From a virus (Duplodnaviria > Caudoviricetes), in the IMG/VR virus record IMGVR_UViG_3300021559_000001, positions 1 through 56,029 of that record: a stretch of DNA of 56,029 nucleotides; one strand, 5' to 3'. A program made the position numbers and the translations under genes. Shown piece by piece: positions 12,800 through 52,156 of this stretch. The notes below the pieces were generated by a model. It was given only the letters and a program-made list of their open reading frames with translations. It was not told the origin of the DNA and did no database searches. Numbering within the stretch: the stretch's first letter is position 1; every line of letters starts with the position of its first letter.

Positions 12800-12815
12800 A
12801 GATGATGCTCCTTTG

Positions 12816-22182: not shown

Positions 22183-22244
22183 AAATTTCCTTTGGATTGA
22201 ATCCGTGCTGTCTGCGCTATGATTGCTGTTGCGAGCGCGATCCT

Positions 22245-30530: not shown

Positions 30531-30599
30531 CTTCCCCCGCGCAATGCCGATTGATGGACCCGTGGCGACCCTTGAGCCCAACGCCAAAAGGATTTTCTC

Positions 30600-31569: not shown

Positions 31570-32354
31570 TCACTTTAATATCACTTTCCCGCGAAATTGC
31601 TTCGGCGCGTGTTTGGGACGGCGCGCCAATGCGGGATACACCGGAGTAACCTCGTGTCTCGATTTGGGAACACAGATGCATCGATCCTCGTGGCGATCAC
31701 AGATAGGACACCATCTTAATTGCACGCGGGTGCCGGATGTTTTCACAGCGGCTAATCGCTCATCCATGTCTGGGCAGTTGCATCTCGCAATATGGTTGTT
31801 GCAGACCGTACAGAACATCACTACCTCCATTCAAATGTGACTTTATTTCCCGTTCTCCACAACGGACGAGCGGACCACGCTTCCGAGACCTTGCAGACTG
31901 CCTCCATTCAAACCCTCGGCCTTCTGCTTACCTGCTAACCATCCTAATCTCCATGCTTGTTGTAAATCTGAGAATCCATAAGGGGGATGATCCCTTGTGG
32001 AGTTTTCAAAGTCTGATAAGCCCTGGTCGTACGCTTTGCGCTTCGCCGCGTCAAAAGTTTTAGCTGCCGCGTTTGAAAGTATGTCCAGTGCGATACCGTG
32101 AGTCGTCTTCATGCGCGCGCCTCTTCCGCCGCCTTGATTTCTTCGCGTGCGACCTGGCGCATAAGGCCCATGATCTTTTTCAGTGAGAGCCCGCCGTGGT
32201 GAAACGATTTCTTGCAGGCGTCGTCGTGGAACTTCGGCGGCACGGTCCAACCGTCTGGATGGTCCTTATCCCGTTTATGCCGGGTGAACTTACACAAGCA
32301 TCCTTGGCACTCCCACCGACCGTCCGCAAGTTGCTTCGCATGTATGACCGCCAT
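31570..32354 (-). CDS. Three small ORFs: Cys-rich 31570-31830, Rmf-like 31843-32112, CxxC 32109-32354
   Basis: Coupled ORFs; AYDQG..PPY..AWRLGW resembles Rmf-like phage proteins. Confidence 0.5.
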
Positions 32355-32454
32355 AATTCCACCGCGCAATGCCGAATACGGGCCGTGGCGTACAGATGAG
32401 CCCAAACACTGATTGTCTTATGTCGTCCGACACTACAATAGATGCCGTAGGACT

Positions 32455-33447: not shown

Positions 33448-35141
33448 GCGGCTATCAGTCCTTTCAGGGCTTCCAGATAATACTTTTCCTGTTCGTCGGC
33501 GTCTTGCTCGAAGCTGTTTTTCTTTCGGAGCACGTTCTCCATCACTAGACCTTCGAGGTGCCGAATGATCGGAAGGTGGATATGGACGGTGTTGGTTTGC
33601 CCGTAGCGCAGGGCCCGGCGCACGGCTTGATAGAAGCGCTCATAGGAATCGTCCCAGCCGGAGAAGATCATCGACGTACAGCACTGGAAGTTCATTCCGA
33701 AGCCGAGCAGTGACGCCTTACTAATCAGGATATCGAGTTGCCCCTTGCGGAATTTCTCGATCAGTGAGATTCGGTCCTTCTGTTTGACTTTGCCGTCCAG
33801 CAAACATGAGCCGATTCCCCGCGCGGCCAATTCTTCCGCGATCAGTTGCCCTTCCTCGTCGAATACGGTCCAGATGAGCACCTGGCGGCCGGCTTTCATT
33901 TCCGCAATGGCGACATCGGCAACTCTCGCCGGCTTCAGCGAGGGGATGAGCCTGACCGTGGTTTTCTTGCCTGTCTTTTCGTAAATGAATCCCTTGGCGA
34001 TTTGGCTCAACTTGGTCCGCTGAACCACGCCGATATTCTGCGTTCCGAGCAGGCCTGCGCCGGCCTCGAAATAGATGCGGTTCTGTTCGTCGATCTGTTC
34101 CGGCGTCGGGTCGATGTCGTATTCATGGAAAACTGGGGGTGGAATCGACGCGAGATTATCGGACCATCCGTACATTTTCGGATTGCGGAGATAGATCGAC
34201 CATGAAGCCAGAAAGCGGTAGAACCCTTCGCGCGCGTGAGGCTTGATGCGCCATTCCCCTTTCTTGTCCCTGGAAAAGAAGGTCCACAGGATATCACTCT
34301 CGGTTCTGAGTTTCTCGATAAACGCCGCCTGGCTCGCGTACTCCATTACCTCGTTGGGCGCCGGGGTCGCTGTGCAGGAGAGTTTATATTCGATCCCCTT
34401 GGCGGATTTGATCAGGTTCCACTTGATGACGCCGCCGCCTGATTTCAGGATTGAGGATTCATCGCAGATCAGGCCGCCCAGCAACCGGAGTTGCGGTAGC
34501 AAGCCGGGAATCATCTTGTCGTAGTTCGTGATTGCCAGTTCGCAGCCGGGCGCTTCGAGCCATTCTTCCAGTTCCTTACGGGTCTCCAGTTTCTTGACTA
34601 GCAGGGCATCGCCGTAGAATTTCGTGGACTCATCGCAGGTTTGCTCAATGATCTGCAACGGCGAAAAGATCAGCACCTTGCGACCGATCGCTGCCAGGAC
34701 ATGCCGCGCCCATTCCAGGAACATGGCCGTCTTACCTAAGCCGCAATCGGCGTAAATCGCATACCGCTGCGCTTTCAGTGCCTGCTTGACGATGAATTGC
34801 TCATAGTCGAACAGGTACGCGGCGATCTGGAGTTTCTCTGCTGGTGTCGCCGGGGCCGGGATGCCGAGCATTGGAAGAAACCGCGCCGGCGTGCTGATGG
34901 TGTAGGAATCGCTCTCCCAGTCGTAGGTGGTTTGGAATTCTGGAAGCCTTTTGCAGTTCAGGAATAGGTCGTAGTGGGCGAGGTCGAAGGTGTCGAAACA
35001 AATACGGGCCGTCGAGCCGTCGATCTGAATTCCCCCGCGCAATGCCGATTCTGAATCGGGCGGTACCGTCGAGCCCAAACCATCTTGAGTCTGATTTTCC
35101 AAGGTGGGCAGTACAGATGAGGCCAAACTATCCGTTTCCAT
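33444..35141 (-). CDS. SNF2-like SF2 helicase
   Basis: ADCGLGKT, ICDESS, CTATPAPN, GFGMNFQ, QAVRRALRYGQ. Confidence 0.9.
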   Translation of the reverse strand: METDSLASSVLPTLENQTQDGLGSTVPPDSESALRGGIQIDGSTARICFDTFDLAHYDLFLNCKRLPEFQTTYDWESDSYTISTPARFLPMLGIPAPATPAEKLQIAAYLFDYEQFIVKQALKAQRYAIYADCGLGKTAMFLEWARHVLAAIGRKVLIFSPLQIIEQTCDESTKFYGDALLVKKLETRKELEEWLEAPGCELAITNYDKMIPGLLPQLRLLGGLICDESSILKSGGGVIKWNLIKSAKGIEYKLSCTATPAPNEVMEYASQAAFIEKLRTESDILWTFFSRDKKGEWRIKPHAREGFYRFLASWSIYLRNPKMYGWSDNLASIPPPVFHEYDIDPTPEQIDEQNRIYFEAGAGLLGTQNIGVVQRTKLSQIAKGFIYEKTGKKTTVRLIPSLKPARVADVAIAEMKAGRQVLIWTVFDEEGQLIAEELAARGIGSCLLDGKVKQKDRISLIEKFRKGQLDILISKASLLGFGMNFQCCTSMIFSGWDDSYERFYQAVRRALRYGQTNTVHIHLPIIRHLEGLVMENVLRKKNSFEQDADEQEKYYLEALKGLIAA

Positions 35142-35741
35142 TTACTTTTTCTCCGTGTTTGAATTCAGAATCGCGTCACCGTTCAAAAGTGAGGTCCGCC
35201 CACTGAGGATCAATTTCTTTTCAGTGCGCCAGTCGTATAATCCTTGGAGTATCCCGTGGATGTCGAGATTGCCGGCGTACGCCTCTTCGCAGATGCGCTG
35301 TATCTCGCGGTCGCAGCGGGCGAGGTCTTCAGCCATTCGCGTTCTCCTCTGAACATGCTGCCTGATGAAATTCAAGTTGTGGTCCTCCGTAATGTAATTG
35401 CTGCGCTGCTTTGTCTTGGCAGAAGTCTAGCCATCTTCGGATAACTTCAGCTGCGTCCCCCTCGGCTACTTGATAGGAGCCGTCCGCATACGTTAACTCG
35501 ATTCGGACACAGGGTACGCTCATGCGGGAATGTCCTCTGGCAGCATCTTCTGGCCTAGGAGTTTCCGCGCTCGGTCGAGTGTGTCCAGCGCCTTCAATAA
35601 TTCTATTCCCAACTCATCGTATGGCAGTGGCGCTAGTTTGTCGCAGGCTGCTTTGATGTTTAGCTTCGCGGTCTCCAGCGCCTCATCGGCTTCCAATTCT
35701 CGGATGAACCGCTCGCATTCCGGCTTGATATTGTTCGTCAT
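35142..35741 (-). CDS. Small hypothetical ORFs (35142-35375, 35329-35523, 35520-35741)
   Basis: Closely packed minus-strand ORFs between dnaB and the helicase. Confidence 0.5.
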
Positions 35742-37063
35742 TCTAAATCCTCCGCGCGATTTTCAAAGGCTGTAATGTGGCCCAGCCAGGTTAGCTCGAT
35801 TTTGCCGGTTGGTCCGTTACGCTGTTTCCAGAGCAGTAATTCCGCCATGCCGTGCAGGTCCTCACGTTCCCGATGGAGCATCTCTGGGCGCCACACGAAG
35901 GCTACTGCGTCGGCGTCCTGCTCAATACTCCCAGAGTCTCTCAGGTCATGAAGCGCTGGCGCGCGGCGCTCTTTCAGATTGTCCCGGTTTAACTGTGACA
36001 AGAGGTGTACATTCACATCCTCGTCAGCGGCCAGGAGTTTCAATTGCCGGGTGATCTCGGAGACTTCCGCGTTCCGGTTGGCGTGCTTTCCTATCGATTG
36101 CAAAAGTTGAAGGTAGTCGATTACCACCATGAAAACATCCTGCTGCTTGGTTTTCTTCCGCCGAACCGCGGCACGGATCGCGCTCACGGTCGAGATTCCA
36201 TATTCGGCGATCCAGAGCGGCCAACTCAAGATTTGCTGGATGGCTTTCTGTATCCGCGTGCGTTCATCACTGTTTAGATATCCGGCCCGGAGTTTCGCGC
36301 CATCGACTCGGGAAAGGGTGCACATCATCCGCGTGAACAATGAGGCCCGCGACATCTCTAGCGAAAAAATCAGAACACCCAATCCGGCTTGAGCTACAGC
36401 CATGGCAACCTGAACCGCGGCCGCACTCTTACCCATCGATGGATTGCCGGCGAGCAAAAATAGTTCCTTGCGCCTGTACCCCCCGGTCATATCGGTCAGT
36501 TTCACCCAGGGGGTTTTGACGAAGGTCGCGGTTTGGTGGGGATTCAAGAAACGGTCAAGTCCTCCAGACTGTTCGATCACCTGTTCCAATCCCAGCATCT
36601 CGGCGGTCTGCTCCGGCTTGTAGCCGATCTTTGTGAGCGCATCTTCAGCCAGCGCGATCAGTTCCTTTGAGTCGCCTTGCTTCGCTACGCAGCGGTCGAT
36701 GAGATTTTGTGACGCGAAAATTATTTTACGGAGGGCCGCTTTCTCGCGGATGATGTCTACGTACGATTCCACGCTGGGCATCTCCGGCAACCCGACATCA
36801 AGTGAGGTAAGGTAGCCTACCCCATCCACCGAGGCGAGCTGCTGGCGGTCGTTCAGATAACTGGCAATTGTGATTCGATCGATCTCCAGCCCGGCCGTGT
36901 CCATCGCCTGTAACGCGGCATAGATGCGTCGATGTTTCTCGAGCGTGAAATCGTCCGCCGTGAGAAGTTGAAATACTTCGGCGTGCTTCTGATGTTCCAG
37001 GATAATCGATCCTAAAACCAGGCGCTCCGCTGGCAGGTCGCAGGGTAGGGCTATCTCGTTCAA
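35738..37063 (-). CDS. dnaB: Replicative DNA helicase DnaB
   Basis: AGNPSMGKS, FSLEMS, VIDYLQL, LSQLNR, DLRDSGSIEQDAD, KQRNGPTG. Confidence 0.95.
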   Translation of the reverse strand: MNEIALPCDLPAERLVLGSIILEHQKHAEVFQLLTADDFTLEKHRRIYAALQAMDTAGLEIDRITIASYLNDRQQLASVDGVGYLTSLDVGLPEMPSVESYVDIIREKAALRKIIFASQNLIDRCVAKQGDSKELIALAEDALTKIGYKPEQTAEMLGLEQVIEQSGGLDRFLNPHQTATFVKTPWVKLTDMTGGYRRKELFLLAGNPSMGKSAAAVQVAMAVAQAGLGVLIFSLEMSRASLFTRMMCTLSRVDGAKLRAGYLNSDERTRIQKAIQQILSWPLWIAEYGISTVSAIRAAVRRKKTKQQDVFMVVIDYLQLLQSIGKHANRNAEVSEITRQLKLLAADEDVNVHLLSQLNRDNLKERRAPALHDLRDSGSIEQDADAVAFVWRPEMLHREREDLHGMAELLLWKQRNGPTGKIELTWLGHITAFENRAEDLE

Positions 37064-39069: not shown

Positions 39070-40219
39070 TGCTTTGGACTCTGCATTAACTTATCCACCT
39101 TAGCCAGAGCTGATACTAATCCAGCGTCAACCCGCGCTTGACTCGGTGATACTGGCTTCGGTGGCTTATGCAGATCGAGCACGCTGAGGGCTACCCATAC
39201 ACAGGTCAATTCCTCTTCAGTCAGTTCCAAGTTGTATAGAAGAATGGGCATTAGCGGTTCTTAGGTTCGGATTTTTGTTTGGGTTGAAGGCTGGAAACGG
39301 GCTCAGATTTGCCATTGCGCGAGGGTTGCCGCTGATTGTGAAAGCGGGCGCGCGCTATCAGGTACTCCAGTGTCGAGACTACCCGGTCATGGATCGTGTA
39401 GGAGCTGTTACCCAGTTCCCCCACGATTTCGCGGTAGTGGCGTAAGGCCGTGTTTTCCAGGTCAATCAGATCGGCTTCGGTGGGTGGTTTCATCGACGGG
39501 CCTCGTAAGTTTCAGGCTGGGCATGAAAGCGCTGGGCGCGTCTCCGGTCAGTGGTTCTCAGAACGCGAAACGAAAGCGAAAACCAGCGAATAAACCATTT
39601 GCCGGCCGTGGCGCGGTCCAGGTGAAGGCTCAGGCAATCCGGCAGGGTCGCGGTGCAAATGGCGCAGAACGGGCGGTACAGACCAAAACTCGGCTTTGCT
39701 AGGCGCTCATGGCACATCGGGCACTCCTCCGCGTGTAGAATTGCAAACCATGTCATTCGATCAGATGCCCCATGTGCTCGCAAACGCAATTACCCGGAAT
39801 TTTTGGAATGTCGGTTGGTGGAAGTCCTGAATTAGGATCATGCCGGAAGACTCGCTGGCTTGAGCAATCGAGTCCGTTATTTGACTCTGGCGGCCAGAAT
39901 ACCCAGAGGACACAAGGGAATTCGCCAGCCTTTTCCGCATCGACGCCATGTCCAGATTCAGGGCAGGGCCGTTCCACCAAAAATTGCACCGTCCGCCGTT
40001 CGTTCACCCGCGCCGCCTCTCGCCGCCCTCGTACCCCTTTGAAATTTGCAGACTCGTCGATTGCAAATTCTGCATATGCCTTAAAAACTCCAAGTGCCTT
40101 AACCAACTCGCCGATAGAAATAGATCTCGTGATTGTTCCGCATCGTAAAATCCTGCAATTGCTTCTTGTTCTGATTGGCTCATGATGATCTTATCGGCTG
40201 ATGTTAGAAGTAGCGGCAT
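39066..40219 (-). CDS. Cluster of small hypothetical ORFs (39066-39251, 39251-39493, 39490-~39789, 40004-40219)
   Basis: Overlapping start/stop codons for the first three; some starts uncertain. Confidence 0.45.
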
Positions 40220-40282
40220 AGGACTTTAGTTTGAATTCGGCTGCGATGCGGGGTTCTGGTCGGAGGTCCGCGTGTCGGCTGT

Positions 40283-40546
40283 TCATGACGCCTCCACGAA
40301 CACATGCCAAACGAACGCGCCATTAGGCGTCTGAACGGTATCAATAAACGTGAGCGGGACGCTTGGTACGGTGTGTCCAGTCCCGACAATCCAAACGGCC
40401 CGCCTTTCTTGGGGCCGCTCAGGAGCAACAATCGCCCACACCTGCAATTCCCCGTGTTGCCACTGGGCACGCAGAAAGACGCCACCGCCTGGAATCCTGA
40501 TTTCCTGCCGGTCCTGAATCTTTAGCGTGAATTTCCAGATCGTCAT
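40283..40546 (-). CDS. Conserved phage hypothetical protein (MTIWKF..VGTGH..WHVF)
   Basis: Pattern recognised from small phage proteins; lies between motifs B (40629) and C (40225). Confidence 0.65.
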   Translation of the reverse strand: MTIWKFTLKIQDRQEIRIPGGGVFLRAQWQHGELQVWAIVAPERPQERRAVWIVGTGHTVPSVPLTFIDTVQTPNGAFVWHVFVEAS

Positions 40547-40675
40547 TGCGGCCACTCCATCGGAACACCTTGCCCGTAATAGGCAATCCAGAACGAAACC
40601 AGCACCACGAAGCCGCCCAGCACAGCCGCCGCGCACTGTCGAGCACGGGGCAGGGTCGATAGATAAGCCCAAATT

Positions 40676-41374
40676 CTAAGCATTGTTTTTCTCCAACTGT
40701 CTCCGAAGATTCTGAACCGTCTCCGTCATCAACTGGATCATGTCTTGCGGATCTCGAACCGCTAAACGGTACGTCTCTGGAAACAACTGCTCAAAGTTTG
40801 ACCGTAAGCATGCTACTAGGGAGTTGTAATCGTATACTCCGATACGCAACTTTTCAAGCCGATCAATCGAGGCTTTCGCGCATTCGTAAGCGTTGGTTGG
40901 ATCGGGAATGCGTTCTTCCGTATTTGAATCCGGCTGCGCTGCAAGGTCTGGTGTGGGAGGTCCGCTCGGTGGCGGGTCAATAATGCGTGGACCAACTTTG
41001 GCGTAGCTTCGCGGGCACGTCACACCCCAACCAAAAATATCCCAGTCCTCACCATTCCATTCCGCAATGCGCCAGTTATCCTGATACCACACCCAGTAAT
41101 AGCCTTCGCGCAATGCCGACTCTGAACCGGGCGGTACAGATAAGCCCAAACTATCGGCATCTTTTTTGTTTGAATCCGGCTGTGCTGCAAGGTCTGGGGT
41201 GGGAGGTCCGCCTGTTGGTTGGCTCTCCAGTTTATCAAGCCGTGCGTGAAACCTGTTTCCGCGTGCCTCTAGCTTCATGGTCCGGCGCTGCAACTCATCC
41301 AACTCGATCTTGACCAACTTCGCCAGATGGATTACTTCTGGATTAAGAACCACTGGAGGTCCAGGAATGTTCAT
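40676..41374 (-). CDS. Mosaic protein with motif-derived linkers
   Basis: GPPTPDLAAQPDSN x2 (motif C) and LGLSVPPGSESALREG (motif B) flank a Trp-rich mini-domain. Confidence 0.65.
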   Translation of the reverse strand: MNIPGPPVVLNPEVIHLAKLVKIELDELQRRTMKLEARGNRFHARLDKLESQPTGGPPTPDLAAQPDSNKKDADSLGLSVPPGSESALREGYYWVWYQDNWRIAEWNGEDWDIFGWGVTCPRSYAKVGPRIIDPPPSGPPTPDLAAQPDSNTEERIPDPTNAYECAKASIDRLEKLRIGVYDYNSLVACLRSNFEQLFPETYRLAVRDPQDMIQLMTETVQNLRRQLEKNNA

Positions 41375-41610
41375 CGGGGTTTCTCCAGTTGAACAATCCG
41401 CGTGCTCCAACTGGCTTCAACTCGTTGAAGTTCGGCGCGCCAGAGGTCCCGCATGTCATCGAAACGCTGGTTTACCGCTTCAAAGCGCTTATCCACAGCA
41501 TCGAATCGGCTGTTCATGTGAGACCACAGGAGACCAAACAGCACGCCGTTAAAAATCAGATTGGCGATGATCGGCACGCCAATGGCAAGGTACAACTGCG
41601 TGTTGCTCAT
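41371..41610 (-). CDS. Small TM plus coiled-coil protein, paralog of 44193..44396
   Basis: TQLYLAIGVP..HMNSRFDA..RFDDMRDLWRAEL. Confidence 0.75.
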   Translation of the reverse strand: MSNTQLYLAIGVPIIANLIFNGVLFGLLWSHMNSRFDAVDKRFEAVNQRFDDMRDLWRAELQRVEASWSTRIVQLEKPR

Positions 41611-41687
41611 CAGTACACCCCCTCCTTGAACGCCTGAATCCCTCCCGTGATAGCCAGAGCGCAGATATCCCGGCTGGTCAATTCCAT
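41610..41687 (-). pseudogene. 25-codon duplicate of the 3' end of gene 42513..43103
   Basis: MELTSRDICALAITGGIQAFKEGVY vs ..FELTSRDICALAITGGIQAFREGVY. Confidence 0.8.
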
Positions 41688-41688
41688 T

Positions 41689-42513
41689 TCAATTCTCCTT
41701 TTTGTTTGAATTCGGGCCGTCTTCAAGGTCTAACGCGGTAGGTCCGCCTACTTGCTGTGACTCCGGCAGGTCTGGCCATGGACCATCGATTGATATGCTC
41801 ACCACGAACGGGCGGCAACAGTTCGGGCACGTAACGTCGCAGGAATCGACCCTTGTGAGACTTTTGCCGGGGAGCGTTTCCCGTCGCTCTGCGCCGGTTG
41901 CGCCGAGAATTGTATCAATCAGGAGCGCCTGGTCTACATCAGTGAAGTGCTGATGCTGGGCTAAATATCCAGGCGTGAACACCGCCATCCGAACTTGTTG
42001 GAGTTTACTTTCGAGGCTCTCTATCCATAACTGGGGATCGGGAAAAAACCCGCGCACGTTCGGAATATCCCCGCGCTTGGGTATTTCCGAAGCTTCAGGT
42101 GTTGGCGGCGCCGGTGTAGCCGTCGCGGCTTCCGGTGGCGCGGTGGCGTTGAGGATTGGAGCCATTACCGTATCTGCATACTGGCAAATATAAGCGACGG
42201 CTTCTGGGCCTTGCATCCGGTTCTCCATGATGATTTGAGCACAGGCTCGAAGACAGGCCGCAATGCCGGCATGCCTGTTCGCTTCGAGAATCTTCACATG
42301 CTTGTTGGCCGCGTCAAGTTCGCCCTTAACGTGCGCAAGCTCGCCGAGCATGTTCCACCGTTCGCGTGGACCGCCTTCGCGCAATGCCGATTCGGAAGCG
42401 GGCGGTACCGTCGAGCCCAAACTCTGAACTAACCGATCGAATCGCCATTTGAGATCATCAAGCTGATCCTGAAGTGTTGGGCGCGGTGTTTCTGGTAAAG
42501 GATCGTGAGCCAT
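41689..42513 (-). CDS. Mosaic hypothetical protein containing motifs B and C in frame
   Basis: LGSTVPPASESALREG and GPTALDLEDGPNSNKK. Confidence 0.65.
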   Translation of the reverse strand: MAHDPLPETPRPTLQDQLDDLKWRFDRLVQSLGSTVPPASESALREGGPRERWNMLGELAHVKGELDAANKHVKILEANRHAGIAACLRACAQIIMENRMQGPEAVAYICQYADTVMAPILNATAPPEAATATPAPPTPEASEIPKRGDIPNVRGFFPDPQLWIESLESKLQQVRMAVFTPGYLAQHQHFTDVDQALLIDTILGATGAERRETLPGKSLTRVDSCDVTCPNCCRPFVVSISIDGPWPDLPESQQVGGPTALDLEDGPNSNKKEN

Positions 42514-43103
42514 CAGTACACACCCTCTCTAAAAGCCTGAATCCCCCCAGTAATAGCTAAGGCGCAGATATCCCGGCTGGTCAATTCAAATGGGAAATTC
42601 TGAGTCTTGGCGTAGGCGGTCGCGGCGATGCCGGCGTCAATGGCGGCGATCAGTTGCCGAGCCAGTGTTCTCGATTGTGGGGTGGCCAACGTCGGCGCCG
42701 CGGCCGGCATGACGGCTACAGTCTTGCCGGTTGTGATATGCTCAGAGCCTCCCTTTTGGGCAGTGGATTGAAACGTGATAGGCTGTTGGGCAAGTCCGTT
42801 TAGACCCTTAAGCGCCGGACGGTCCTGATTCGCGTTCTCGGGGCCGTCCGGTTGGGTGATCCTCTCCACCTTCCAGACCGCCGCGTTTCCTTGGCCGATT
42901 GTTTTCGTCAGCGTGAACGGTTCGCCTGGGCCGGCGTGGAGTTTCTGTATTTCATCGTGGGCGATCGGCGGAACGAATAGGGCATGTCCACCTTCGAGGG
43001 TGTAGAGGTATTGAAGTCCGTATTGCCCTTGCTTCTCTTTTGCGGAAGCATAGAGCAAGTTTACGGTGAGCGGTTTGTTGGGGATGATCTTTATGATGGC
43101 CAT
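42513..43103 (-). CDS. Hypothetical protein with a possible OB-fold N-terminus (196 aa)
   Basis: AAGGA RBS after motif C; GQYGLQYLY..FTLTK..WKVE. Confidence 0.6.
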   Translation of the reverse strand: MAIIKIIPNKPLTVNLLYASAKEKQGQYGLQYLYTLEGGHALFVPPIAHDEIQKLHAGPGEPFTLTKTIGQGNAAVWKVERITQPDGPENANQDRPALKGLNGLAQQPITFQSTAQKGGSEHITTGKTVAVMPAAAPTLATPQSRTLARQLIAAIDAGIAATAYAKTQNFPFELTSRDICALAITGGIQAFREGVY

Positions 43104-43107
43104 GGGC

Positions 43108-44196
43108 TTAGGAATCCTTTGTTGTTGAATTCGGCTGGTCTGCGGGGTTCGGAGGTGTGGTCCGCGTACTGGATGCGCCTTCCGCTTTGGCGATGGCTGC
43201 CTCACGCTTCCGTCTTCTCCAATCGTTCAACCCTGGAGCTCCGGCAGTCAGGTAAGCGTCTTCCGCATCCGGTCCGATGGCTTTTGCGCTGGCTTTTGTA
43301 TAACCAAACATTTGCAATTGCTGTTCAATGCGGGCCACTTCCAGGAGTTCCGGCGCGGCAGCGTGAAGGGGGCAATAAACCCATCTGAGCCCTCGAAAAC
43401 TGAAGCCATCGCTATCGTTCGTGAGTCGGCAACCACAGGAGTGCGCACGGTCCTCCCCGCGCATTTCCGTCTGTGAATCGGGCGGTACAGACGCGGCCAA
43501 CCTCTCATTCAACCGGCGCTTACGATCTGCTATTTCGTTCTTAAGACTCATATTCCAAAAGCCTCCCTATGCATCCTATTCTCCTGAATCACTTCGATTC
43601 TCCTTTTGTTGTTGAATTCGGCTGTGATGCGGATTTCGGGTCGGAGGTCCGCTTGCCGAGTTTTATAGCGGCCTTTCGATTGGCCCATGCAACGATCCAA
43701 CTCGGCAGCAATCCTCCGGCGAGAATGAGCCATAATCCGCCGCCGACGTGCCCGACGAGTCGAGTAATGGCGGCGCCGTGTTCATCTAAAATGCAAACGT
43801 ATCCGAACGCGACGCTGAAAAGGATCAGCAAGCCGGTCGTAATCATATGCCGAACGCCTCCCGATGGCCGCGCCGTTCTTCCATTTGATTAAACAGGCTG
43901 ATTGCTTCATCCCTTCGCATTGAAGCGAATACGGAGCCTTCACCCTTGCAAGGTGGGCAGGGTTCAGCGGTTCGGAGTGAGCCTGGGTCTACTCCGTCTC
44001 CTCCGCAATTCTGGCATCCGAGGATTTCTCCCCAGAGGTTGCGAAACTCGTTCCTCGCCGATTCGACCCATCGGCAACCGTCTTCAAGTTCTCGCTCGTA
44101 GTCGGCTCGTGTTTCGCAATCGACTACGCGAACCGTGAGGTTGACTGTTCCAGATTCGCCAGATTCGTTTTCGTAATGGATGCGTCCGTACATCAC
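43108..44196 (-). CDS. Hypothetical ORFs 43108-43551 (HAAAPELL), 43589-43846 (2 TM), 43843-44196 (CxxCxGxG)
   Basis: Coupled ORFs; two end in motif C. Confidence 0.6.
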
Positions 44197-44588
44197 TTGG
44201 CCTCCAGATGCTTCAGGCGGGCGTCGAGCACTTCTTCGACCCGGCGAAGCTCGGCGCGCCAGAGGTCCCGCATGTCATCGAAACGGATATTGATGGCGTC
44301 GAATCGGCTGTTCATGTGCGACCACAGGAGGGCATATAAGGCCGCGTTGAACAGCATGGGCACGCCGATGGCGAGATAGAGTTGGGTGTTGGTCATCGGC
44401 TAGACCTTACCCTTACCATTGGTGTGCTCAGTGGCGATGGCGCGGATGAGCGCGTCCAGGCTGGTCTCGATTCTGGTCATGCGTTCATTGGCTGTTTGCA
44501 TATTCTCGCCGAATTTGAGCATGAGCACCGCCTGCTTTTCCAGAATTGTCTCGATCCGGTCGAACCGTTCCTTGGTTGCTTTATCCAT
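44193..44588 (-). CDS. Two small coiled-coil proteins (44193-44396, 44400-44588)
   Basis: RFDDMRDLWRAELRRVEEVLDARLKHLE; ERFDRIETIL. Confidence 0.7.
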
Positions 44589-44594
44589 ACACCG

Positions 44595-44673
44595 ATTATG
44601 CCATTGTGCCTAGCGGCAAGCAAGAAGTATTTCACCTTAGTTACTTGACGGTAGGCAGGAAAGGCTCTATACT
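44595..44673. promoter_or_regulatory. Divergent sigma70-type promoter pair
   Basis: Minus: TTGCTT-17-CATAAT (44623-44595); plus: TTGACG-17-TATACT (44645-44673). Confidence 0.65.
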
Positions 44674-44842
44674 CGCTTTCAGTGAAAAGATTCAACGTAT
44701 GGTTTGATTCGCTTGTTGAGCCCGGTCGATTCCTGGTTTTCGTGGGGCTTATTATGCCTGCGGCAGTCGCACTCGGCAGTCACCATGCCGGTTTCGCGTG
44801 CCTCTGGTTTCTCGGGTTGGGTATTCTGCGGAAGGGGCGGAT

Positions 44843-45049
44843 TTGAAGCGCAAGAATCAGGCAGCCGTCGCGCTCGGTCGCCTCGGAGGGAAAGCGCGCG
44901 CCTCAAAACTCAGCGATCAGGAACGGGAAGAAATCGCTCGACTTGGGGGACGTGCAAAGGCCGCGAATCGAGCAAACGGGACAGCCGCCGCGCTCGAAAC
45001 AGAAACAGAGCTTGCACAATCTACAAGCCAAAAACAAAAGAAACTCTGA
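44843..45049 (+). CDS. Small basic protein (LGGKARA..EIAR family)
   Basis: KNQAAVALGRLGGKARASKLSDQEREEIAR; TTG start with GAAGGGG RBS. Confidence 0.65.
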   Translation: MKRKNQAAVALGRLGGKARASKLSDQEREEIARLGGRAKAANRANGTAAALETETELAQSTSQKQKKL

Positions 45050-45666
45050 TGCTAAACGCTCACTTCAAACCTCTCCATCAATGGTCCGGTCCTCGGACTG
45101 AAAGCCGGAAGTCTGGCACGTTTCGAGCGGACTGGGTGAGCACGTTGGATCTACTGGAATACGAGCTCAGCAAGTTGCGCGCGAAAGATATCGTGATCCA
45201 ACTCGAAGATCCGGAAGCCATCAAGGGCATCCGCAACGATGGCTCGTACCGAATGTTGAGCCGGTCCTACTATCGGAACCAAGCGGGCGTGATCCTTACC
45301 TTTGAAAGTCCGAAGGGCAATATCTCAATGCCATGCGACCGATACGACGATTGGAAAGACAACCTGCGGGCAATCGCTCTTTCCTTGGAAGCCCTTCGAG
45401 CTGTGGATCGCTACGGAGTCACAAGAGGGAATGAGCAGTATCGAGGGTGGACACAAATCGGAAATGGACATGGAAAGATGGATCGGGCGTCGGCGTTGAA
45501 GCTCATCGAGACCCTGAGCGGCGCTTCTGTCAATCCGAATTCCCCGCCGTCCACCTTTCGTGGCCTATGTCGAAAGCTGAAAATACTTCATCACCCTGAC
45601 CATACAGGCGGTTCACATGAAACCTTTGTAGCTATTGGGCAGGCGGAAGAGGTGTTATGCGGGTGA
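45049..45666 (+). CDS. Phage protein with a C-terminal DnaJ J-domain
   Basis: CDRY..W.DNLRAIALSLEALRAVDRYG and C-terminal HHPDHTGGSHETF. Confidence 0.8.
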   Translation: MLNAHFKPLHQWSGPRTESRKSGTFRADWVSTLDLLEYELSKLRAKDIVIQLEDPEAIKGIRNDGSYRMLSRSYYRNQAGVILTFESPKGNISMPCDRYDDWKDNLRAIALSLEALRAVDRYGVTRGNEQYRGWTQIGNGHGKMDRASALKLIETLSGASVNPNSPPSTFRGLCRKLKILHHPDHTGGSHETFVAIGQAEEVLCG

Positions 45667-45722
45667 AGAATGAGGGTTTGAATTCGGCTAGCCGCTCCCG
45701 TTGGGGTGCGAGGTCCGCGTAA

Positions 45723-46085
45723 ATGGCCTGGCTCCCCAATCCAATCGCCTGCGATATGTGCGGAGCTGTCAAGCAACCCTCTAACAACTGGTACTACGCA
45801 GCGTTCGTACCACAGACGGAAGACGATGCGCACCTGACCATCTGGCCGTGGGACTACCCGGCCGAGGATCGCTCGAAACCCTACAAGCACATCTGCGGGC
45901 AAGTCTGCGCTATTCGGCTGTTGAACGAATTTATGAATGGTTTGAATCCCCCGGAGCAGGTCCCAGCCGCGAAACCCGATCCTCCTGGACCGCACTCCGA
46001 TTGGGAGCGAGTCAAAAAATCGGTTCGGGAATCGCTAGCCGATGCCGCGCTGAAATCGACACTCGCCGCGCTCCCCACAGAATAA
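45723..46085 (+). CDS. Zn-finger hypothetical protein (CDMCG..HICG..C)
   Basis: RBS from motif C; bracketed by motifs C and A. Confidence 0.7.
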   Translation: MAWLPNPIACDMCGAVKQPSNNWYYAAFVPQTEDDAHLTIWPWDYPAEDRSKPYKHICGQVCAIRLLNEFMNGLNPPEQVPAAKPDPPGPHSDWERVKKSVRESLADAALKSTLAALPTE

Positions 46086-46127
46086 AACCTTGGCGGAAAG
46101 CACGACGGCGGTTTACCCCAAAAACCC

Positions 46128-46934
46128 CTACGAAACTACACTGATTAAATCCGCTTCCAGTTGCGCTAAGTTGAAATTGTCTGGCGCTTGCCCATTGGCT
46201 TCTATCCAGTCTTGCGACAAAACTCCGTACGCTTCGTCCATGTACCATCTCATGAAATTCCAAGACATGTGAAGCGGCGCTCCCCACGTAATCACCGTGA
46301 GGCCTGCCGGCGAGTAGGCCACGATAGGAACGCAGTGCCCTCCCCAACTCCCGGCCGCGGCGTTCGCGCTTCCGAACGGCCCGCCTGGGTCGACGGTCCA
46401 TTGGCTCATTCCTTGTGCCGTGTTCGGTAGCGCAAGTCCGATGTAGGCGGTGCCGAATAGCCAAACCGCATCCATGATCTCCTGGGAGTTCCAGGTGCTC
46501 TTTGTCCAGGATCCTTTTAGCGGATCGATCGAGACGAAGGCCTGGATCTGATGGCCCGCGATCCCTGTCTTCCGCCAGTAGTTCAGCGCGTCGAGCATTA
46601 CGCAGCCATTGTCCGTATCTGGCCTGCCGGGGATGTAGCCGCCTACTTTTTCGTAGGCGATTTCGATTTGATCGTCCGATGGCATGTACGGTTTGCCGGC
46701 GTTCGCGGTCCATCCCGTTATCATGTGGCCGCTGGCTGCTATTACGCAGTCTCCTAAGTTGTCGTTCAGGAACATCGGCCAGGGAGTTGCAAAGTCTTTC
46801 TCCGGCATAGCGGTCCAGGATTGTGCCTGGGGAGCTGGGGGTTTGATGATGTACTTGGACATGCGGAGGGTTCGCTTGTCGATTCGGGGGGCGAGCTTTC
46901 CTAGCTTACCGTGGGGTTGGGGTTCGTGTGGCAT
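46128..46934 (-). CDS. Papain-like cysteine peptidase
   Basis: NDNLGDCVIAA (Cys), GGHCV (His), VITWG. Confidence 0.75.
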   Translation of the reverse strand: MPHEPQPHGKLGKLAPRIDKRTLRMSKYIIKPPAPQAQSWTAMPEKDFATPWPMFLNDNLGDCVIAASGHMITGWTANAGKPYMPSDDQIEIAYEKVGGYIPGRPDTDNGCVMLDALNYWRKTGIAGHQIQAFVSIDPLKGSWTKSTWNSQEIMDAVWLFGTAYIGLALPNTAQGMSQWTVDPGGPFGSANAAAGSWGGHCVPIVAYSPAGLTVITWGAPLHMSWNFMRWYMDEAYGVLSQDWIEANGQAPDNFNLAQLEADLISVVS

Positions 46935-46942
46935 AGGGTGTT

Positions 46943-48593
46943 TCAATCCTTTTTGTTTGAATTCGGCTGCGCTGCGGGGTTCGGGTTGGAGGTCCGCGTA
47001 CATGCTTTCCGTTTCAGCATCGCGGCCAGCCGGTCGCGCTCGGCGATCAGCTTAAACAGATCCTTTTCGAGCTTCGTGATTCGGTCCAGGAACTTGGCGA
47101 TAGAGTCGCGCCGGTCGCAAATCTTCTTGCGCACCGCCATCAGACGCCGGTAGTCTGGATCGCCGCGGCGCGCGGCATGGTACGCCTGCGACCGGGATAT
47201 GCACCGCTGGCGATATTCGGGATTCGCTTTGTACAACTGTTGCTTGTAGGTCACTTCAAATCTTGACGTTACTTGTCACTTGGATCGTTTCTCCCATGAG
47301 CACCAATTTGCCATCGGGAGAGCCTTGTAGGAATGTTCGATTGTAGCTGGGGTCGATCAGGGTTAATGCTCCGGCGTCAGCCGCTACGAAGGCCTCTTGT
47401 ACGGCGATGGCGGTTGTGGTCTGGCCGTCTGCGCTCTTCTTTGTGGCTGTGACCATGAGGAGTCGTTCACCATCTTTGATGAGGGCTCCGAATTTTAAGC
47501 TGCTGAAGGTTGGTAGGTCCACGTTACTTGCTCCTTTTTTGTTTGGGCTTGAGGCTTGGAACGCTCTGTTTCTTGCCTTTGCGCGGTGGATTTTTGCCCG
47601 GTCTGCCCGAAACGATAACAGTTGAAGCGGCTCGGCCTGGTCTGTCAAATGCTAAATCGTGGGCCGTTTGTGCGAGTCCCAAAGCCTCAACAGCCGCTAC
47701 AAGGCTGGTGTTCACCTCGTTGATTACGGCGCGCATCCCGTCATGGCAGTAACGGGCGTTCTCGAATGCTTTACCGATACCAGCGGAAACGATCTGAACC
47801 CAAAGTTCCGCGCGGTCCAGTTGCGTTCTCGCGAGTTCCTGCGCTGGCGTGTATTCGCGTCTGCGTCTGCGTCGTCTCACTTTACCTCCATGAAATCGTC
47901 GTCCTGATCTTCAGATTCATCGAGCGTCGGACAATCGAGGGAGGTGGCCGTCTTCCGGGTTTCCATCGCAGCATGTGAAATCTCGAGAAATCGGTTCGAC
48001 GGCTGTTAGCGCCTTGGCACCCGGCAGTTTCAACGCGATCAGTGGCCGGCGCTGATTCTCGCGGATGGCCTTCCTTGCCGCCTCTTCAGTGCAAGGGATA
48101 ATCCGATAGATTGATCCGGCTCCGACAAGCACGCTGACAGCTTCGATAGCCCCGCGTTGCACAATCGTTCCGGCCGGTAGTGTGGTGTTTCCGATCCAGG
48201 TCGATTCGGTCAAGGTCTCTTCGGCTTCGGGAATCTCCGGTTGGTCGATGCGAAACAGAACCGCGGCGCCGTAGGCTTCGGTCGTCACGTAACCGACGTG
48301 GGACTGATGCCCCATTACTTCGACGCGCGCCCAGCCTTTGAATTCCGCCTGGTTTGTTTCGTTCATAGTTCCGTCCCAACGTGTTTCTTGAGCCACGCCT
48401 TTTCATCGTCGGACTGAGCGCTTTCTGGCCAGCGGATAGCCTGGGCTGCGGCAAAGTGTGGCGCGTCGAATCGGCGCGGGCATTGGCTCCTGGCGTCTTC
48501 TGGGCTTGTCGCCTCGACCTCTTTCAAGCACGAATACATTGGAACGCCGTTTTCTCTTCCCCGATCATTCGTAAAAATCCGGTACTTGCTCAT
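46943..48593 (-). CDS. Hypothetical ORFs 46943-47254, 47256-~47648, 47524-47880, 47917-48366 (WARVEVMGH), 48363-48593
   Basis: Closely packed minus-strand ORFs; some boundaries uncertain. Confidence 0.5.
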
Positions 48594-48816
48594 TTTGCAA
48601 TTCCTCCGCGCAATGTCATCTCCGAACGGCGCCGACAGATGAACGGCGGTTTATCCCTAAAATCCAATCCATTGCGCGGGGGAAGTCCCGAAATTTCCAG
48701 CCTGGACGGAGCAAATCGAAGAGAAAACAAAGTTTGCACGGTCCCCTGGAGCCTCGTTCCAGAAGTTGCTCTAGCCTGACCTTGTGATTGACCTTCGGGA
48801 CTTGCCTCGCGCAATG

Positions 48817-49920
48817 TCATCGTAATTGCTCAATACGTAGCGCCGTGCCGGTGTTTGTTCCCGGCGGCGTGATCGGAACTGCAACCCACTTCGGACTCTT
48901 GGATACACTCCCATCGTCCGGGATTCCCACCATGACGCGCGGGCCGTCCGCGAATAAGAGAGTATAGAGTTCCAGCCCTGCGCAGGACGGGGGTATCGCC
49001 AGGTTCATGCTAAGCATTTGAACCCGCATGAGCGCCTCGGAAAGATTTACCGCGTCTACGGGTCCGCCGCTGGAAGAGATTCTGAGCGCCCCAAGGCGTT
49101 TTGCGGTTGGGGTGGCAAGGTCGTCTACGCAGACGGAGCGTTGAGTCAAGAGAACGGATGGCGCTTTCACCTGGGGGAAGTCGATGCGCGTCTGGGCAAC
49201 CATCGCCAGTAACAGGCAGAGTGCGACAGCCGACGAGCGGATCACGCTTCTAAAGCCTTGCAGACTAGCTCCCTTCAAATCCATAAATCCTTCAGTACGT
49301 ATAATCCACTAACAGAATATCTCCTGGTTGTGGAATCCCCATTGTCCCGGAGCCCGGTGGAACGACTGGAATCGGCACGAAGACTATTTTGGTCGCGTTC
49401 CAATTCGAGGTATCGAGGTTGTAATCGCAGCATCCAGGCGGGATGCAGGTGGCCGGAAGTACAACCGGGGGAGAGCATCGATATTGCCGTACGCCGTTTC
49501 TCCATAACTTGATCGACGCCCACGGCGCCGGTTGGTGGGCGATCTGGAATATCGTGTTTATGCCATCAAGGACTCCGGCCGGTCTCTCTTCGGACATGGT
49601 GCCGTGGGGTACTTGGGCTTGGACGGTTAGATTGACGACTAGAATGGCGATGCCGATGAAGGCAAAAAGGGCGGCAATGTTATCTGGTCTTTTCATGGTT
49701 TGGGTTCACCTGTCGGCGACGGGTTCGGAGTGGCCGTTGCGCGGGGAATTAGCGCTACGGCTTTCGGCTTCAAATCCGGGTGACTCCATCTTTCCTGATA
49801 TCCGTGACCGCGAAAGGGATGCAATTTCCAGTCGGTTTCAGTGTGCATGGTTTGACGCTGACATGCAAAACAATTTGGCTGAGGGGTCGCCAGAATCAGA
49901 CTGCGTTCGGCGGCCGTCAT
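48817..49920 (-). CDS. ORFs 48817-49284 and 49292-49696 (signal-peptide-like N-termini) and 49693-49920
   Basis: Hydrophobic N-terminal segments; GVLDGINTIF..KLWRNG..DY beta-domain. Confidence 0.55.
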
Positions 49921-51002
49921 GAAGTAGCATCCTCTAACCGGCTTCGGAAGTAACCCATCAGATCGGCGATGAGCTTTTTATTCCTGCCCGTGAGTTGATA
50001 AAGGCCTTGAGCGTCCCGTTTCAGATCCAGCGAAGGGTCAAAATTATTTTCATTGATGATCTGCCAACGGGTGAGGTAGCCGCGATTCTGTTTCCTTCCA
50101 TGCCAGAAATGCGTGAGAAGGCCCGGAACGTAGCCGATTTTCGGCTTGAGGATCTCGGCACGCTCCCCCCAAATCTTCAGTGAATCCTTGAACGGCTGCG
50201 GGGATTGGCCGTGCGCCGAATCCAGAATATTGCCGATGAAACCGCGCGCCATGTGGTGATCGTTGGCGCCGCACACTGACCAGTCGATCAGCCCGCCGAG
50301 GGTATCGAGCGCGTAACGGGTCGCGGCCCAGGCATAACCCGCATGGCCGGGATGCAATCTCATCCGCTGGCCGCGGCCGTATGAATACGGGTTGCAGCCT
50401 TCGGCCCGGATAATGCGCTGATATTCCGCCAGCGTCCCATAGCGCCCGCTCTCGATAAACTGGTGCATCATGCCCGGCATCTGCTCGCCGCCGTCGTCGA
50501 ATCCCACGATTTCATGGTCGATGTTCAAATCCTGGCACATGCTCCACATCTGAACCACGTGGTAGTGCTGGAGTTGGTGCATCGTTTCTTGCGCCCAATC
50601 GGGCCTGGAAAATTGTACGTCGGCGTCGATCCAGGCGAAATACTTCGCCTCTGGATACAACCGGATAGCGTTTGCGATCAGCAAATTGAGGAGATTTTCT
50701 TTTTGCCAGAGTTCCTGCATGTGCTGACGCAACTGCAGGTGGTGTGGGTTGTTCGGGTCGGTCACTTCGAAATGCCGGCCGCCGAATGCAATCTCGCCCA
50801 CGTGGAGAATCGCGGAGCTCATATCGACTCGTCTCTCGAATCCGCGGTAGAGCTCGTATCGGCTTCTGAATCGCTGGGGGTTGATGATGGCGGTACAGAC
50901 GTGGAGCTTATCAGGGAATGGCCAGATGCCTGGTTTTGCATGGGAGGGGTGGTCTATGAATTGTTCTGGGTTAGGGGAGGGTATGTAGCGGGGGTTGAGC
51001 AC
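49917..51002 (-). CDS. Putative GT-A fold glycosyltransferase
   Basis: WQKENLLN..YFAWIDADV (DXD)..HFWHG; GTG start after motif C RBS. Confidence 0.65.
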   Translation of the reverse strand: MLNPRYIPSPNPEQFIDHPSHAKPGIWPFPDKLHVCTAIINPQRFRSRYELYRGFERRVDMSSAILHVGEIAFGGRHFEVTDPNNPHHLQLRQHMQELWQKENLLNLLIANAIRLYPEAKYFAWIDADVQFSRPDWAQETMHQLQHYHVVQMWSMCQDLNIDHEIVGFDDGGEQMPGMMHQFIESGRYGTLAEYQRIIRAEGCNPYSYGRGQRMRLHPGHAGYAWAATRYALDTLGGLIDWSVCGANDHHMARGFIGNILDSAHGQSPQPFKDSLKIWGERAEILKPKIGYVPGLLTHFWHGRKQNRGYLTRWQIINENNFDPSLDLKRDAQGLYQLTGRNKKLIADLMGYFRSRLEDATS

Positions 51003-51003
51003 T

Positions 51004-51261
51004 TCAGTCCTTTGTGTTTGAATTCCGCTGGGATGCGGGGTTAGGGTCAGAGGTCCGCTTATCGGATGCCAGCTTATTTCCGAGATCTTTAATCCGTTGG
51101 GAGACATCAGGATACTTTGTCAGACTTGCGGCAGCGGCTCCGAGGGCCAGTAGCAGCGTCTCGTATTCTTCCTGTGAGAACTGGATCTGTACGCCTACGA
51201 GTACACGGCGGCTTGCCGAACTCGGAGCGTGAGAACTCTTCGATCGAGGTTTATCACTCAT
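51004..51261 (-). CDS. Hypothetical protein ending in motif C
   Basis: ATG overlapping the upstream gene end; C-terminus RTSDPNPASQRNSNTKD. Confidence 0.5.
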   Translation of the reverse strand: MSDKPRSKSSHAPSSASRRVLVGVQIQFSQEEYETLLLALGAAAASLTKYPDVSQRIKDLGNKLASDKRTSDPNPASQRNSNTKD

Positions 51262-51373
51262 CTTTCGGCTTCCCCCACCTGGCCCTTGCCGCCTTCCTTG
51301 CGGACTCTGAGCGTGCTTTTGGTTTCATCTTGGCCGCTCTGGCTTTTCCACCGAGCTGAGCTAATTCTTTCAC
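51254..51373 (-). CDS. Small basic protein (39 aa), paralog of 44843
   Basis: LAQLGGKARAAKMKPKARSESARKAARARWG. Confidence 0.65.
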   Translation of the reverse strand: MKELAQLGGKARAAKMKPKARSESARKAARARWGKPKDE

Positions 51374-51405
51374 GGAAGCTACTTTCTTCTTGGGAATGAT
51401 GATTC

Positions 51406-51434
51406 AGTATGATGCGTGCTGGTACGCATGTCAA
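51406..51434 (-). promoter_or_regulatory. sigma70 promoter with a palindromic operator in its spacer
   Basis: TTGACA-17-CATACT; ATGCGT-N6-ACGCAT between the boxes. Confidence 0.65.
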
Positions 51435-51508
51435 GCCGGAGTTTTGCTAGGGGTAAACCTCCGTCGTAGATTCTGCCCGGTTCGTAGTACCGGGAGCGCG
51501 GGGGATGT

Positions 51509-52156
51509 CTATGCCTGCTTGTCCTTGTCTTGTCGGCGGGCCGTGCTACGGAGTTCCATCGCCTTCTTTACCGTGATGCCGGGGTGCATCTTGTCGTAGG
51601 CTTGCATGAGTTGAATGAGTCTGTTTAGTTGGGGTAGTTCCATCGATTGTTCACCTTTGATGAAGGCGCGGCGTTTTTTCAGATCGGCCAGAGTAGCGTT
51701 CGGCAGTTCAATTTCACGCCCGCGGCTGCTGCGTGTTCTTGGCTCCAAAATTAGGTAATACGGAATTCGTTCAAATTGTTCAGAAAATGGCAGTCGGCTC
51801 TGGTTGGGGTGTCCAAATCGGGGCCGTCCATGCTTAAGGGGATTATGGGTGTTGATGCTGGCGGTTGACTTGGAGAACATTTCCCCTTGGGCCGGTTCCG
51901 GTTTCTCTTGGGGCGGCTGCGTCTCTCGCTCTTTGGTCTTCGAATCCGAAGGTTGCGCCATTTCCCGTCGTCGGATCTCCTCTGAGCAAAGAGACTCGAT
52001 TTTGTCATCAGCTAATTTCCGTTGGTACTGGGCTATGAATGCGGCGTAGTGGTGGCGTGCCCAGCGGACCAAATCAACCGGGCTGGCCGTGGGGTTTTCG
52101 TCTATCGCCTGAGCGATGACGCTGCGCAATTTCGCTTCCAAATCGCTGGTGCTCAT
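51509..52156 (-). CDS. Cassette hypothetical protein, paralog of 1962..2477
   Basis: GAGGT RBS; FERIP..NATL..LNRLIQLMQA..ITV..AM. Confidence 0.75.
   Translation of the reverse strand: MSTSDLEAKLRSVIAQAIDENPTASPVDLVRWARHHYAAFIAQYQRKLADDKIESLCSEEIRRREMAQPSDSKTKERETQPPQEKPEPAQGEMFSKSTASINTHNPLKHGRPRFGHPNQSRLPFSEQFERIPYYLILEPRTRSSRGREIELPNATLADLKKRRAFIKGEQSMELPQLNRLIQLMQAYDKMHPGITVKKAMELRSTARRQDKDKQA

Follow-up and report, generated by a model that had tools for sequence, protein, structure and literature searches.

Phage genomes constantly gain ORFan genes. It is seldom possible to see how a newcomer joins a series of genes coupled in translation and leaves the adjacent genes intact; at the locus described here the joint is preserved, and near-identical relatives offer both empty and differently filled alleles for comparison. 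In the general model of Hendrix, Hatfull and colleagues, illegitimate recombination is said to generate mosaic joints at the gene boundaries of tailed phages.

The closest evolutionary analogue of the blocks bordered by the repeat S1 described below is the promoter-early stem-loop (PeSL) cassettes of T4-type phages, in which short repeats border ORFans in variable regions, as presented in the main text of Arbiol et al. (2010, PMC2839356). A related layout is that of the bicistronic design (BCD), outlined in PMC5995908 and bioRxiv 10.1101/2023.02.09.527918, where a short, efficiently translated leader cistron with its own Shine-Dalgarno sequence (SD) is coupled to a second cistron. The SAS and ESAS elements of Cluster K mycobacteriophages are described by Pope et al. 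(2011, PMC3203893) as having a 13-bp consensus, GGGATAGGAGCCC, located 3-7 bp upstream of starts. The locus analyzed here presents one solution to the entry of a new gene: the last codons of the upstream gene, which hold the ribosome binding site of the next gene and the stop/start overlap, are duplicated and fused in frame to a borrowed start codon.

Duplicated gene tails in a chain of small genes

The stretch of DNA analyzed (the window) spans 56,029 bp, has direct terminal repeats and a G+C content of 56%, and represents a complete viral record; the sequencing runs that contain it are soil metagenomes. Its only Rfam or ARAGORN match is one tRNA-Met. The locus lies upstream of the replication genes, in a minus-strand block where small genes are closely packed (Table 1). 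Ten local proteins were tested; none has a Pfam match above the curated cut-off, and nine lack a convincing PHROG match. Single-sequence searches of viral contigs with the proteins of genes A and B found no relatives, and those used below were recovered via DnaB plus alignments of C and A only. They comprise four viral records and one metagenome contig (L006, G002/L010, G001/L009, L016 and L008), and the scans of six sequences reported here cover the window and these five.

Table 1 Window positions of the genes, mini-ORFs and repeat copies discussed in the text
Feature	Position	Strand	Remarks
DnaB-like helicase	35738-37063		replication genes
Second helicase	33444-35141		replication genes
ORF with PHROG match	45049-45666	plus	phrog_9210 (function unknown), E=2.5e-30; tenth local protein tested
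D2, small membrane and coiled-coil gene, paralogue of D1	44193-44396		MTNTQLYLAIGVP...
Gene A, 117 aa	43843-44196	minus	small zinc-ribbon (CxxCxGxG) protein; from the ORF list
Tail copy 1	43843-43884	minus	last 13 codons of A (MEERRG HREAFGI) and TGA; tail of database allele P0008 identical
Cargo gene X, 85 aa	43589-43846	minus	two hydrophobic segments (by eye); starts at the ATG of A's ATGA
S1 at the end of X (site C)	43582-43667	minus	nhmmer E=4.8e-18; GCGGACCTCC..CCGCA..CAGCCGAATTCAACAACAAAAGGAGAATCGAAGTG; carries C-terminal codons of X, SD (GGAG) and GTG start
Scar 2 mini-ORF	43548-43592	minus	GTG ATT CAG GAG AAT AGG ATG CAT AGG GAG GCT TTT GGA ATA TGA
Gene B, 147 aa	43108-43551	minus	N-terminal region with repeat S2; C-terminus encoded by another S1 copy
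S1 at the B/C junction	43081-43178	minus	TTCAACAACAAA variant, as in the S1 of X
Gene C, 196 aa	42513-43103	minus	conserved in all relatives
Scar 1 cargo gene Y, 274 aa	41689-42513	minus	ends in an S1 copy
S1 at the end of Y	41661-41760	minus	
Scar 1 mini-ORF	41610-41687	minus	ATG and 24 codons (ELTSRDICALAITGGIQAFKEGVY) duplicating the tail of C; TGATG overlap with D1
D1, small membrane and coiled-coil gene, paralogue of D2	41371-41610		MSNTQLYLAIGVP...
S2 copies	2478-2543, 3292-3357, 4206-4271, 5244-5309, 8513-8578, 9509-9574, 30528-30552, 32353-32407, 35030-35095, 40624-40689, 41101-41166, 42372-42437, 43458-43515		
S3 copies	461-514, 1822-1886, 3119-3183, 5176-5240, 8099-8152, 9017-9070, 15202-15264, 18172-18196, 24683-24747, 28729-28793, 51448-51501		

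The product of gene A has a sub-threshold match to Pfam DnaJ_CXXCXGXG (E=1.5e-4, below the curated cut-off). Its family, labelled 'DnaJ-class molecular chaperone' by one source, has 30 database relatives and was absent from the genome contigs searched. The gene ends in cat cgg gag gcg ttc ggc ata tga (HREAFGI and stop), and this tail holds an SD, GGGAGG, and an ATGA overlap that now serve X. The cargo gene X has no Pfam or PHROG match and is an ORFan, matching only itself among 5.8 billion proteins; its final ~20 codons are encoded by repeat S1.

According to the initial annotation, the HREAFGI end of A recurs with four synonymous changes in a minigene (43548-43574) that is coupled to the next gene. 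Both copies are read directly on the minus strand, their four nucleotide differences (c>a, g>t, c>t, c>a) are indeed all synonymous, and the TGA of the second copy overlaps the ATG of B as ATGA. The minigene itself is present but was probably drawn too short. Its ATG at 43574 is internal to a frame that is open from a GTG at 43592, and since this GTG has its own GGAG 7 nt upstream and overlaps the stop of X as GTGA, the mini-ORF probably comprises 14 codons (V IQENRM HREAFGI and stop). Tail homology likewise covers 13 codons, beyond the 7 aa first noted. The six extra codons, IQENRM, differ from the tail of the window's own gene A (MEERRG) and match the tails of other A-family alleles: the A' gene of L006 ends in ...LFNQIQENRMHREGFGV, and P0004, one of the 30 database relatives, in ...MQENRMHREAFGI, with 12 of 13 residues as in the mini-ORF. 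The mini-ORF is thus a 13-codon A-family tail behind a borrowed start codon. It also contains the SD of B (AGGGAGG), 10 nt before B's ATG.

As a control for chance, exact 7-aa matches directly before a stop codon were counted in the window and in 100 second-order Markov shuffles. The window has four such pairs. A DNA repeat at 20250/22220, read on both strands, accounts for two of them and a 51-nt tandem duplication at 27631/27682 for another; HREAFGI is the remaining one. No pair occurred in the 100 shuffles, either genome-wide or within 2 kb, so a match of this kind is not common in shuffled sequence, and the HREAFGI duplication is homology, not chance.

A second scar (scar 1) lies between C and D1, and the same architecture, proposed earlier for the two, was recovered at both: a gene tail, cargo, S1, a start codon with the duplicated tail, and the next gene. 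Here the order is C tail, Y, S1, ATG with 24 C-tail codons, and D1. Gene C ends in ...ELTSRDICALAITGGIQAFREGVY and a stop within a TGATG overlap, now with Y. The duplicates form repeat family D20 (77 nt, 86% identity); the 75-nt copies differ at 11 positions, which change nine codons, eight of them synonymously. An independent soil run also contains the joint, in a 384-nt match with 2 differences. In a test for tandem duplication at this scar, alignment of Y with D1 and the 244-aa ORF g244 aligned only the common S1 and S2 repeats, and no donor start context was identifiable for the scar 1 joint. Of the two paralogues, D2 precedes A and D1 follows scar 1.

Repeat S1 and the other repeat families

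Repeat S1 is ~60 nt long and spans the last ~17 codons of the upstream ORF, an A-rich stretch and the SD, and some copies extend to the following gene's start codon. With a profile made from six copies, 31 were detected across the six sequences. The 11 copies in the window (E<1e-3) are confined to the minus strand, at 31-51 kb. The first half of the repeat is read in two frames in different genes (RTSxPNPA... and GGPPTPDL...) while the DNA is conserved, which points to a constraint at the nucleic-acid level or to a recent common origin, not to a peptide motif. The TTCAACAACAAA variant is common to the S1 copies of X and B, and the other copies in the window are without it. A strict S1 pattern had no match in 185,579 species genomes, and among viral contigs it matched only the window's own record.

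A role of S1 as promoter, terminator or structured RNA was considered and dropped. None of the eight promoter-like sites in 39500-52000 overlaps S1, and their number shows no excess over the shuffle mean of 6.2; the model used is sigma-70-like and may not be that of the host. No S1 copy contains a gene-strand terminator-like site, and the folds of five copies are no more stable than shuffles (z = 0.06 to 0.58). Most S1 copies (e.g. at 43640-43650) contain CCUCC, the anti-SD core, ~45 nt upstream of the SD. When 43540-43670 is folded, this CCUCC pairs with the GGGAGG of B in both the MFE and the centroid structure, at a stability equal to that of shuffles.

Two further repeat families occur at gene boundaries. 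S2 (~60 nt) encodes, on the gene strand, ...LGSTVPPGSESALRE... within the first ~50 codons of many unrelated genes genome-wide; its hosts include B and Y, and g244 has a mid-ORF copy near residue 90. Where S2 comes directly after S1, the two make up a composite gene junction (e.g. 41135-41230 and 35100-35225). Inside the 244-aa ORF (40676-41410) are two copies of S1 and one of S2, and its 3' end bears another S2; all are read through in frame, and the ORF looks like a fusion of several cassettes. S3 (plus-strand form GGGGTAAACCGCCGTCGTGCTGTCC...) is located at the 3' ends of many minus-strand genes, to which it gives common C-terminal codons.

Elsewhere in the window, a 74-nt intergenic repeat is present in three copies that are 78-88% identical (6509-6582, 20206-20279 and 22176-22249). 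Read on the minus strand, it finishes with an SD and a start, and it is possibly a promoter or leader for late genes. Two paralogous stretches of 207 and 300 nt (73-77% identical, 2.4 kb apart) lie at 4357-5064 and 6825-7496 in the minus-strand block at 1-9.5 kb. The PHTILQ tails, each followed by a stop, of three consecutive minus-strand genes (11452, 11821 and 12818; region 11450-13205) were also considered as scars and rejected, as they are full-length ORF ends. These genes have ~10 similar C-terminal residues and are probably paralogous structural genes.

Filled and empty alleles and the origin of the joint

Gene C of the window is 61-64% identical to its counterparts in the relatives by the best tblastn segment and 62-65% in the alignment, and B, B' (L006) and B'' (L009) have only their N-terminal ~35 aa in common. 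In L006 the slot between A and B is filled. Its A' gene ends in ...IQENRMHREGFGV and a stop, and is followed by two small ORFs (27 and 72 aa) and then by the mini-ORF GTG ATT CAG GAG AAT AGG ATG CAT CGG GAG GGT TTT GGT GTC TAA, the stop of which overlaps the GTG of B'. The 72-aa ORF is hydrophobic and ends in S1. The right joint, ...GGAGAATCGAAGTG followed by ATTCAGGAGAATAGGATGCAT, is identical in the window and L006, and tblastn and blastn detected no similarity between the two cargoes.

Empty alleles are found in three further sources. In G002/L010 the A' tail runs directly into B', without the 326-nt block that is present in L006 and consists of the tail copy, the two small ORFs, S1 and GTG. 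The flanks of these two relatives are 99.4% (351 nt) and 99.9% (3,609 nt) identical, and three SNPs cluster within 60 nt to the right of the joint, which suggests a recombination patch. In G001/L009, with a DnaB 64% identical, A'' is followed directly by B'' and then by C. One contig from an independent soil run has an A'-type gene leading straight into a tail that is 40/43 identical to the window mini-ORF. Apparent joints of 36-41 nt among the sequencing-run contigs proved to be repeat matches and were set aside. The empty state of scar 1, with C directly coupled to the D homologue, is found in L016, L008 and L009. In agreement with the initial annotation, the scar thus recurs in a related genome, L006, and empty relatives exist for both scars.

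Other rearrangements were noted in these relatives. A second difference between the 99.9%-identical genomes (L006 5457-5645 and L010 3924-4284) is an allelic replacement, which extends from 10 codons inside a gene (MKPPTEADLI...) up to the ATG of the following one. In L008 a 299-aa frame (1587-2486) joins the N-terminal domain of A, a D-like fragment in another frame, the zinc finger of A' and a B-like body with a YCPLHAAA motif, indicating deletions or fusions in the same hot spot.

A 23-nt sequence from the 5' side of the scar 2 joint (the 3' end of S1 with GTG ATT) was used to scan the six sequences on both strands. Outside the two scars, matches of at least 17/23 occur only at the S1-to-C start junctions of L016 (19/23) and G001 (17/23), where the stop of the upstream gene overlaps the GTG of C. 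The 5' side of the joint is matched best by the start context of C in the relatives (AAAGGAGA..GTG AT.). Given a C-start-like 5' side and an A tail on the 3' side, the joint would represent an in-frame fusion between the start of C (initiation region and two codons) and the 13-codon end of A.

We lean towards the view that an unequal crossover or local duplication added a slot between A and B and that the scar is the new joint it left, with the cargo swapped later and the mini-ORF coupling B. An unequal crossover at the level of microhomology, equivalent to a local tandem duplication, would have duplicated the slot between A and C. With one end just inside C, behind the S1-borne SD, GTG and ATT, and its counterpart in A 13 codons short of the stop, it would have produced a single novel joint (S1-SD-GTG-ATT / CAG GAG ... 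HRE.FG. stop) and the order A - slot 1 - S1 - joint - B - S1 - C. Gene A would keep its intact end, and the copy of the B start region after it would drive whichever gene fills the slot, here X. Gene B would keep its full native initiation region, with the SD AGGGAGG in a translated ORF and a stop overlapping its ATG. The content of the slot may later have been exchanged by homologous recombination via the flanks (A tail on the left, S1 and tail on the right), and the whole block may likewise have been gained or lost by homologous recombination among near-identical phages. We infer this order of events from the compared sequences.

A duplication of this kind is consistent with fresh, 100%-identical tandem repeats that straddle gene junctions in this phage group. 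At 27580-27681 of the window, two perfect 51-nt copies lie at the junction of a 521-aa gene (26068-27633, plus strand) and the next gene, each spanning 10 final codons, the ATGA overlap and 7 initial codons; L016 has a perfect junction duplication of two 62-nt copies at 5080-5203. The mini-ORF peptide also falls within the natural allelic variation of A tails, to judge from the tail of P0004. Several observations count against the crossover or duplication. The assignment to C relies on ~20 nt of S1-subfamily sequence and the 2-3 nt after the GTG. Both scar joints lie directly after a start codon and in frame, and being in frame alone has a probability of 1/9 for two events; such joints would be rare with random end-points, so that strong selection or a more specific mechanism is needed. 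The predicted parental order A-X-S1-C is absent among the five related records, and since the interior of the slot 1 copy (X) is not homologous to B, a later replacement must be assumed. Finally, B has a strong SD of its own, and the coupling may therefore be dispensable.

The region might also be a gene-slot system, a broader idea that we hold tentatively and consider fairly unlikely. S1, which sits at gene ends and brings an SD and a start, S2 (at gene starts) and S3 elsewhere would supply the homology for swapping ORFans, mini-ORFs would be bicistronic adaptors that admit new genes without disturbing the neighbours, and S1 would be a specific recombination or translation module instead of passive homology.

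The initial annotation had seen in the shared architecture a repeatable insertion mechanism that preserves coupling. This holds insofar as the stop/start overlaps are kept throughout and the scar recurs; a repeatable insertion tied to the sites does not follow. Such a mechanism would make ORF and S1 units mobile, with an S1-dependent insertion duplicating the tail of the target gene, and would resemble PeSL mini-circles or integron cassettes. It would account for the same anatomy at two loci of one genome, with both joints at the 3' edge of S1 after a start codon, for cargo that always ends in S1, for the 3' subtype GGAGAATyGAArTG common to the two scar-associated S1 copies, and for presence and absence between 99.9%-identical genomes. 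However, a systematic look after the S1 copies of the six sequences found a tail-duplicate mini-ORF behind only 3 of 31, which represent two independent loci, and the other 28 are scarless. The duplications, 39 and 75 nt long and diverged, are unlike the short identical target duplications of transposases, S1 has no inverted repeats, hairpin, promoter or terminator, and recombination between S1 copies would add a gene and an S1 without duplicating the tail of the neighbour. That the window and L006 have an identical right joint but unrelated cargo is better explained by a single old event and subsequent cargo exchange than by repeated insertion, and the resemblance of the 5' half of the joint to the start of C is as expected for unequal crossover or duplication. 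A dedicated cassette insertion is thus unlikely.

Three established types of insertion were considered and rejected. A transposon or IS would be expected to leave identical target-site duplications of 2-15 bp, whereas the repeats here are of 39 nt (13 codons) and 75 nt and diverged, and X is an 85-aa ORFan without a Pfam match and, by inspection, without inverted ends. An integron attC cassette does not agree with the lack of a hairpin in the folding of S1, nor a free-standing homing endonuclease with the lack of a Pfam or PHROG match for X.

The mini-ORF could also be the remnant of a full second A copy downstream of X and S1, reduced by an in-frame deletion to a start codon and the last 13 codons. 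The rearranged A pieces of L008 (A N-terminal domain, D fragment and A' zinc finger fused to a B-like body) and the two D paralogues of the window would suit such a history. Nevertheless, the sequence before the GTG is S1- and C-start-like (19/23 to L016), while the A' start context matches at only about 10/19 positions in a manual alignment; two independent and precise in-frame deletions would be needed, one per scar; and no relative has a full second copy of A. We find a deletion remnant quite improbable.

Simulations indicate that the share of synonymous differences between the tail copies far exceeds chance expectation: 4/4 at scar 2 (p about 8e-4), 8/9 changed codons at scar 1 (p about 2e-5) and 3/3 in L006 (p about 1e-3). 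Recombination between diverged alleles explains this pattern, because every copy forms the end of a genuine A or C allele, or did so until recently; selection on the mini-peptide is not shown by it. That the 14-aa (or 8-aa) peptide itself is a selected functional product is highly improbable, as the synonymous excess in its favour at both scars and in L006 arises equally from allele recombination without selection on the mini-ORF, the L006 mini-ORF equals the real A' tail of L010 except for one base, and the window and L006 mini-ORFs differ at 2/13 residues.

Proposed coupling of gene B and comparison with known systems

Stop/start overlaps run through the chain (A/X ATGA, X/mini-ORF GTGA, mini-ORF/B ATGA), each with an SD at proper spacing, and the start context of B at the mini-ORF is the one found in relatives where A abuts B. 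Under the crossover or duplication favoured above, ribosomes that finish X, or that load at the SD of S1, would translate 14 codons and terminate on the start of B. The mini-ORF probably keeps the translation start of B working; it would be a natural bicistronic coupler that makes the expression of B independent of the upstream cargo, a function we infer from the sequence layout. If the mini-ORF buffers the expression of B in this way, it offers a natural counterpart of bicistronic design and a concrete route for moron-like gene accretion without a promoter or terminator of its own. There is also a warning for annotation, in that mini-ORFs and common C-terminal tails can be recombination footprints.

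As in the PeSL system described in the main text of PMC2839356, near-identical phages differ here by an ORFan and one repeat (the 326-nt block that distinguishes L006 from G002/L010), and the shuffling can be explained by recombination via repeats or flanks. In contrast to the PeSL, S1 has no sigma-70-like promoter or terminator stem-loop, is partly contained in the upstream ORF and supplies the following gene with its SD and start (compare PMC2839356). The words 'duplication' and 'translational coupling' are absent from the main text of PMC2839356, which thus does not describe duplicated-tail mini-ORFs.

The layout of scar 2 resembles the BCD, as outlined in the sources cited above, in its sequence: SD1 (GGAG) with a GTG start, a 14-codon leader, SD2 (AGGGAGG) inside the leader, and a stop that overlaps the next start (ATGA). 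It differs in that the mini-ORF is natural, built from a duplicated gene end by recombination, and its function presumed. With the SAS and ESAS, as characterized in PMC3203893, S1 has in common that phage-specific AGGAG repeats stand a few bases before starts, in one orientation, in the non-structural part and at unrelated genes. Unlike these elements it is ~60 nt long instead of 13 bp, unrelated in sequence and translated as the tail of the upstream gene, and it lacks the inverted repeats of the ESAS (PMC3203893).

In a literature search of open-access papers and preprints, no account emerged of phage insertion joints at which a duplicated gene tail acts as a coupler. The scar agrees with the mosaic-joint model in that a novel boundary joint would be kept by selection, with both neighbours functional, and spread by recombination in the flanks. 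It differs from that model in that the joint is visible as an in-frame start-plus-tail mini-ORF which preserves the overlaps, is present at two loci of one genome and has been conserved in a relative. Overall, the locus represents a variant of known phage mosaicism, new in form.
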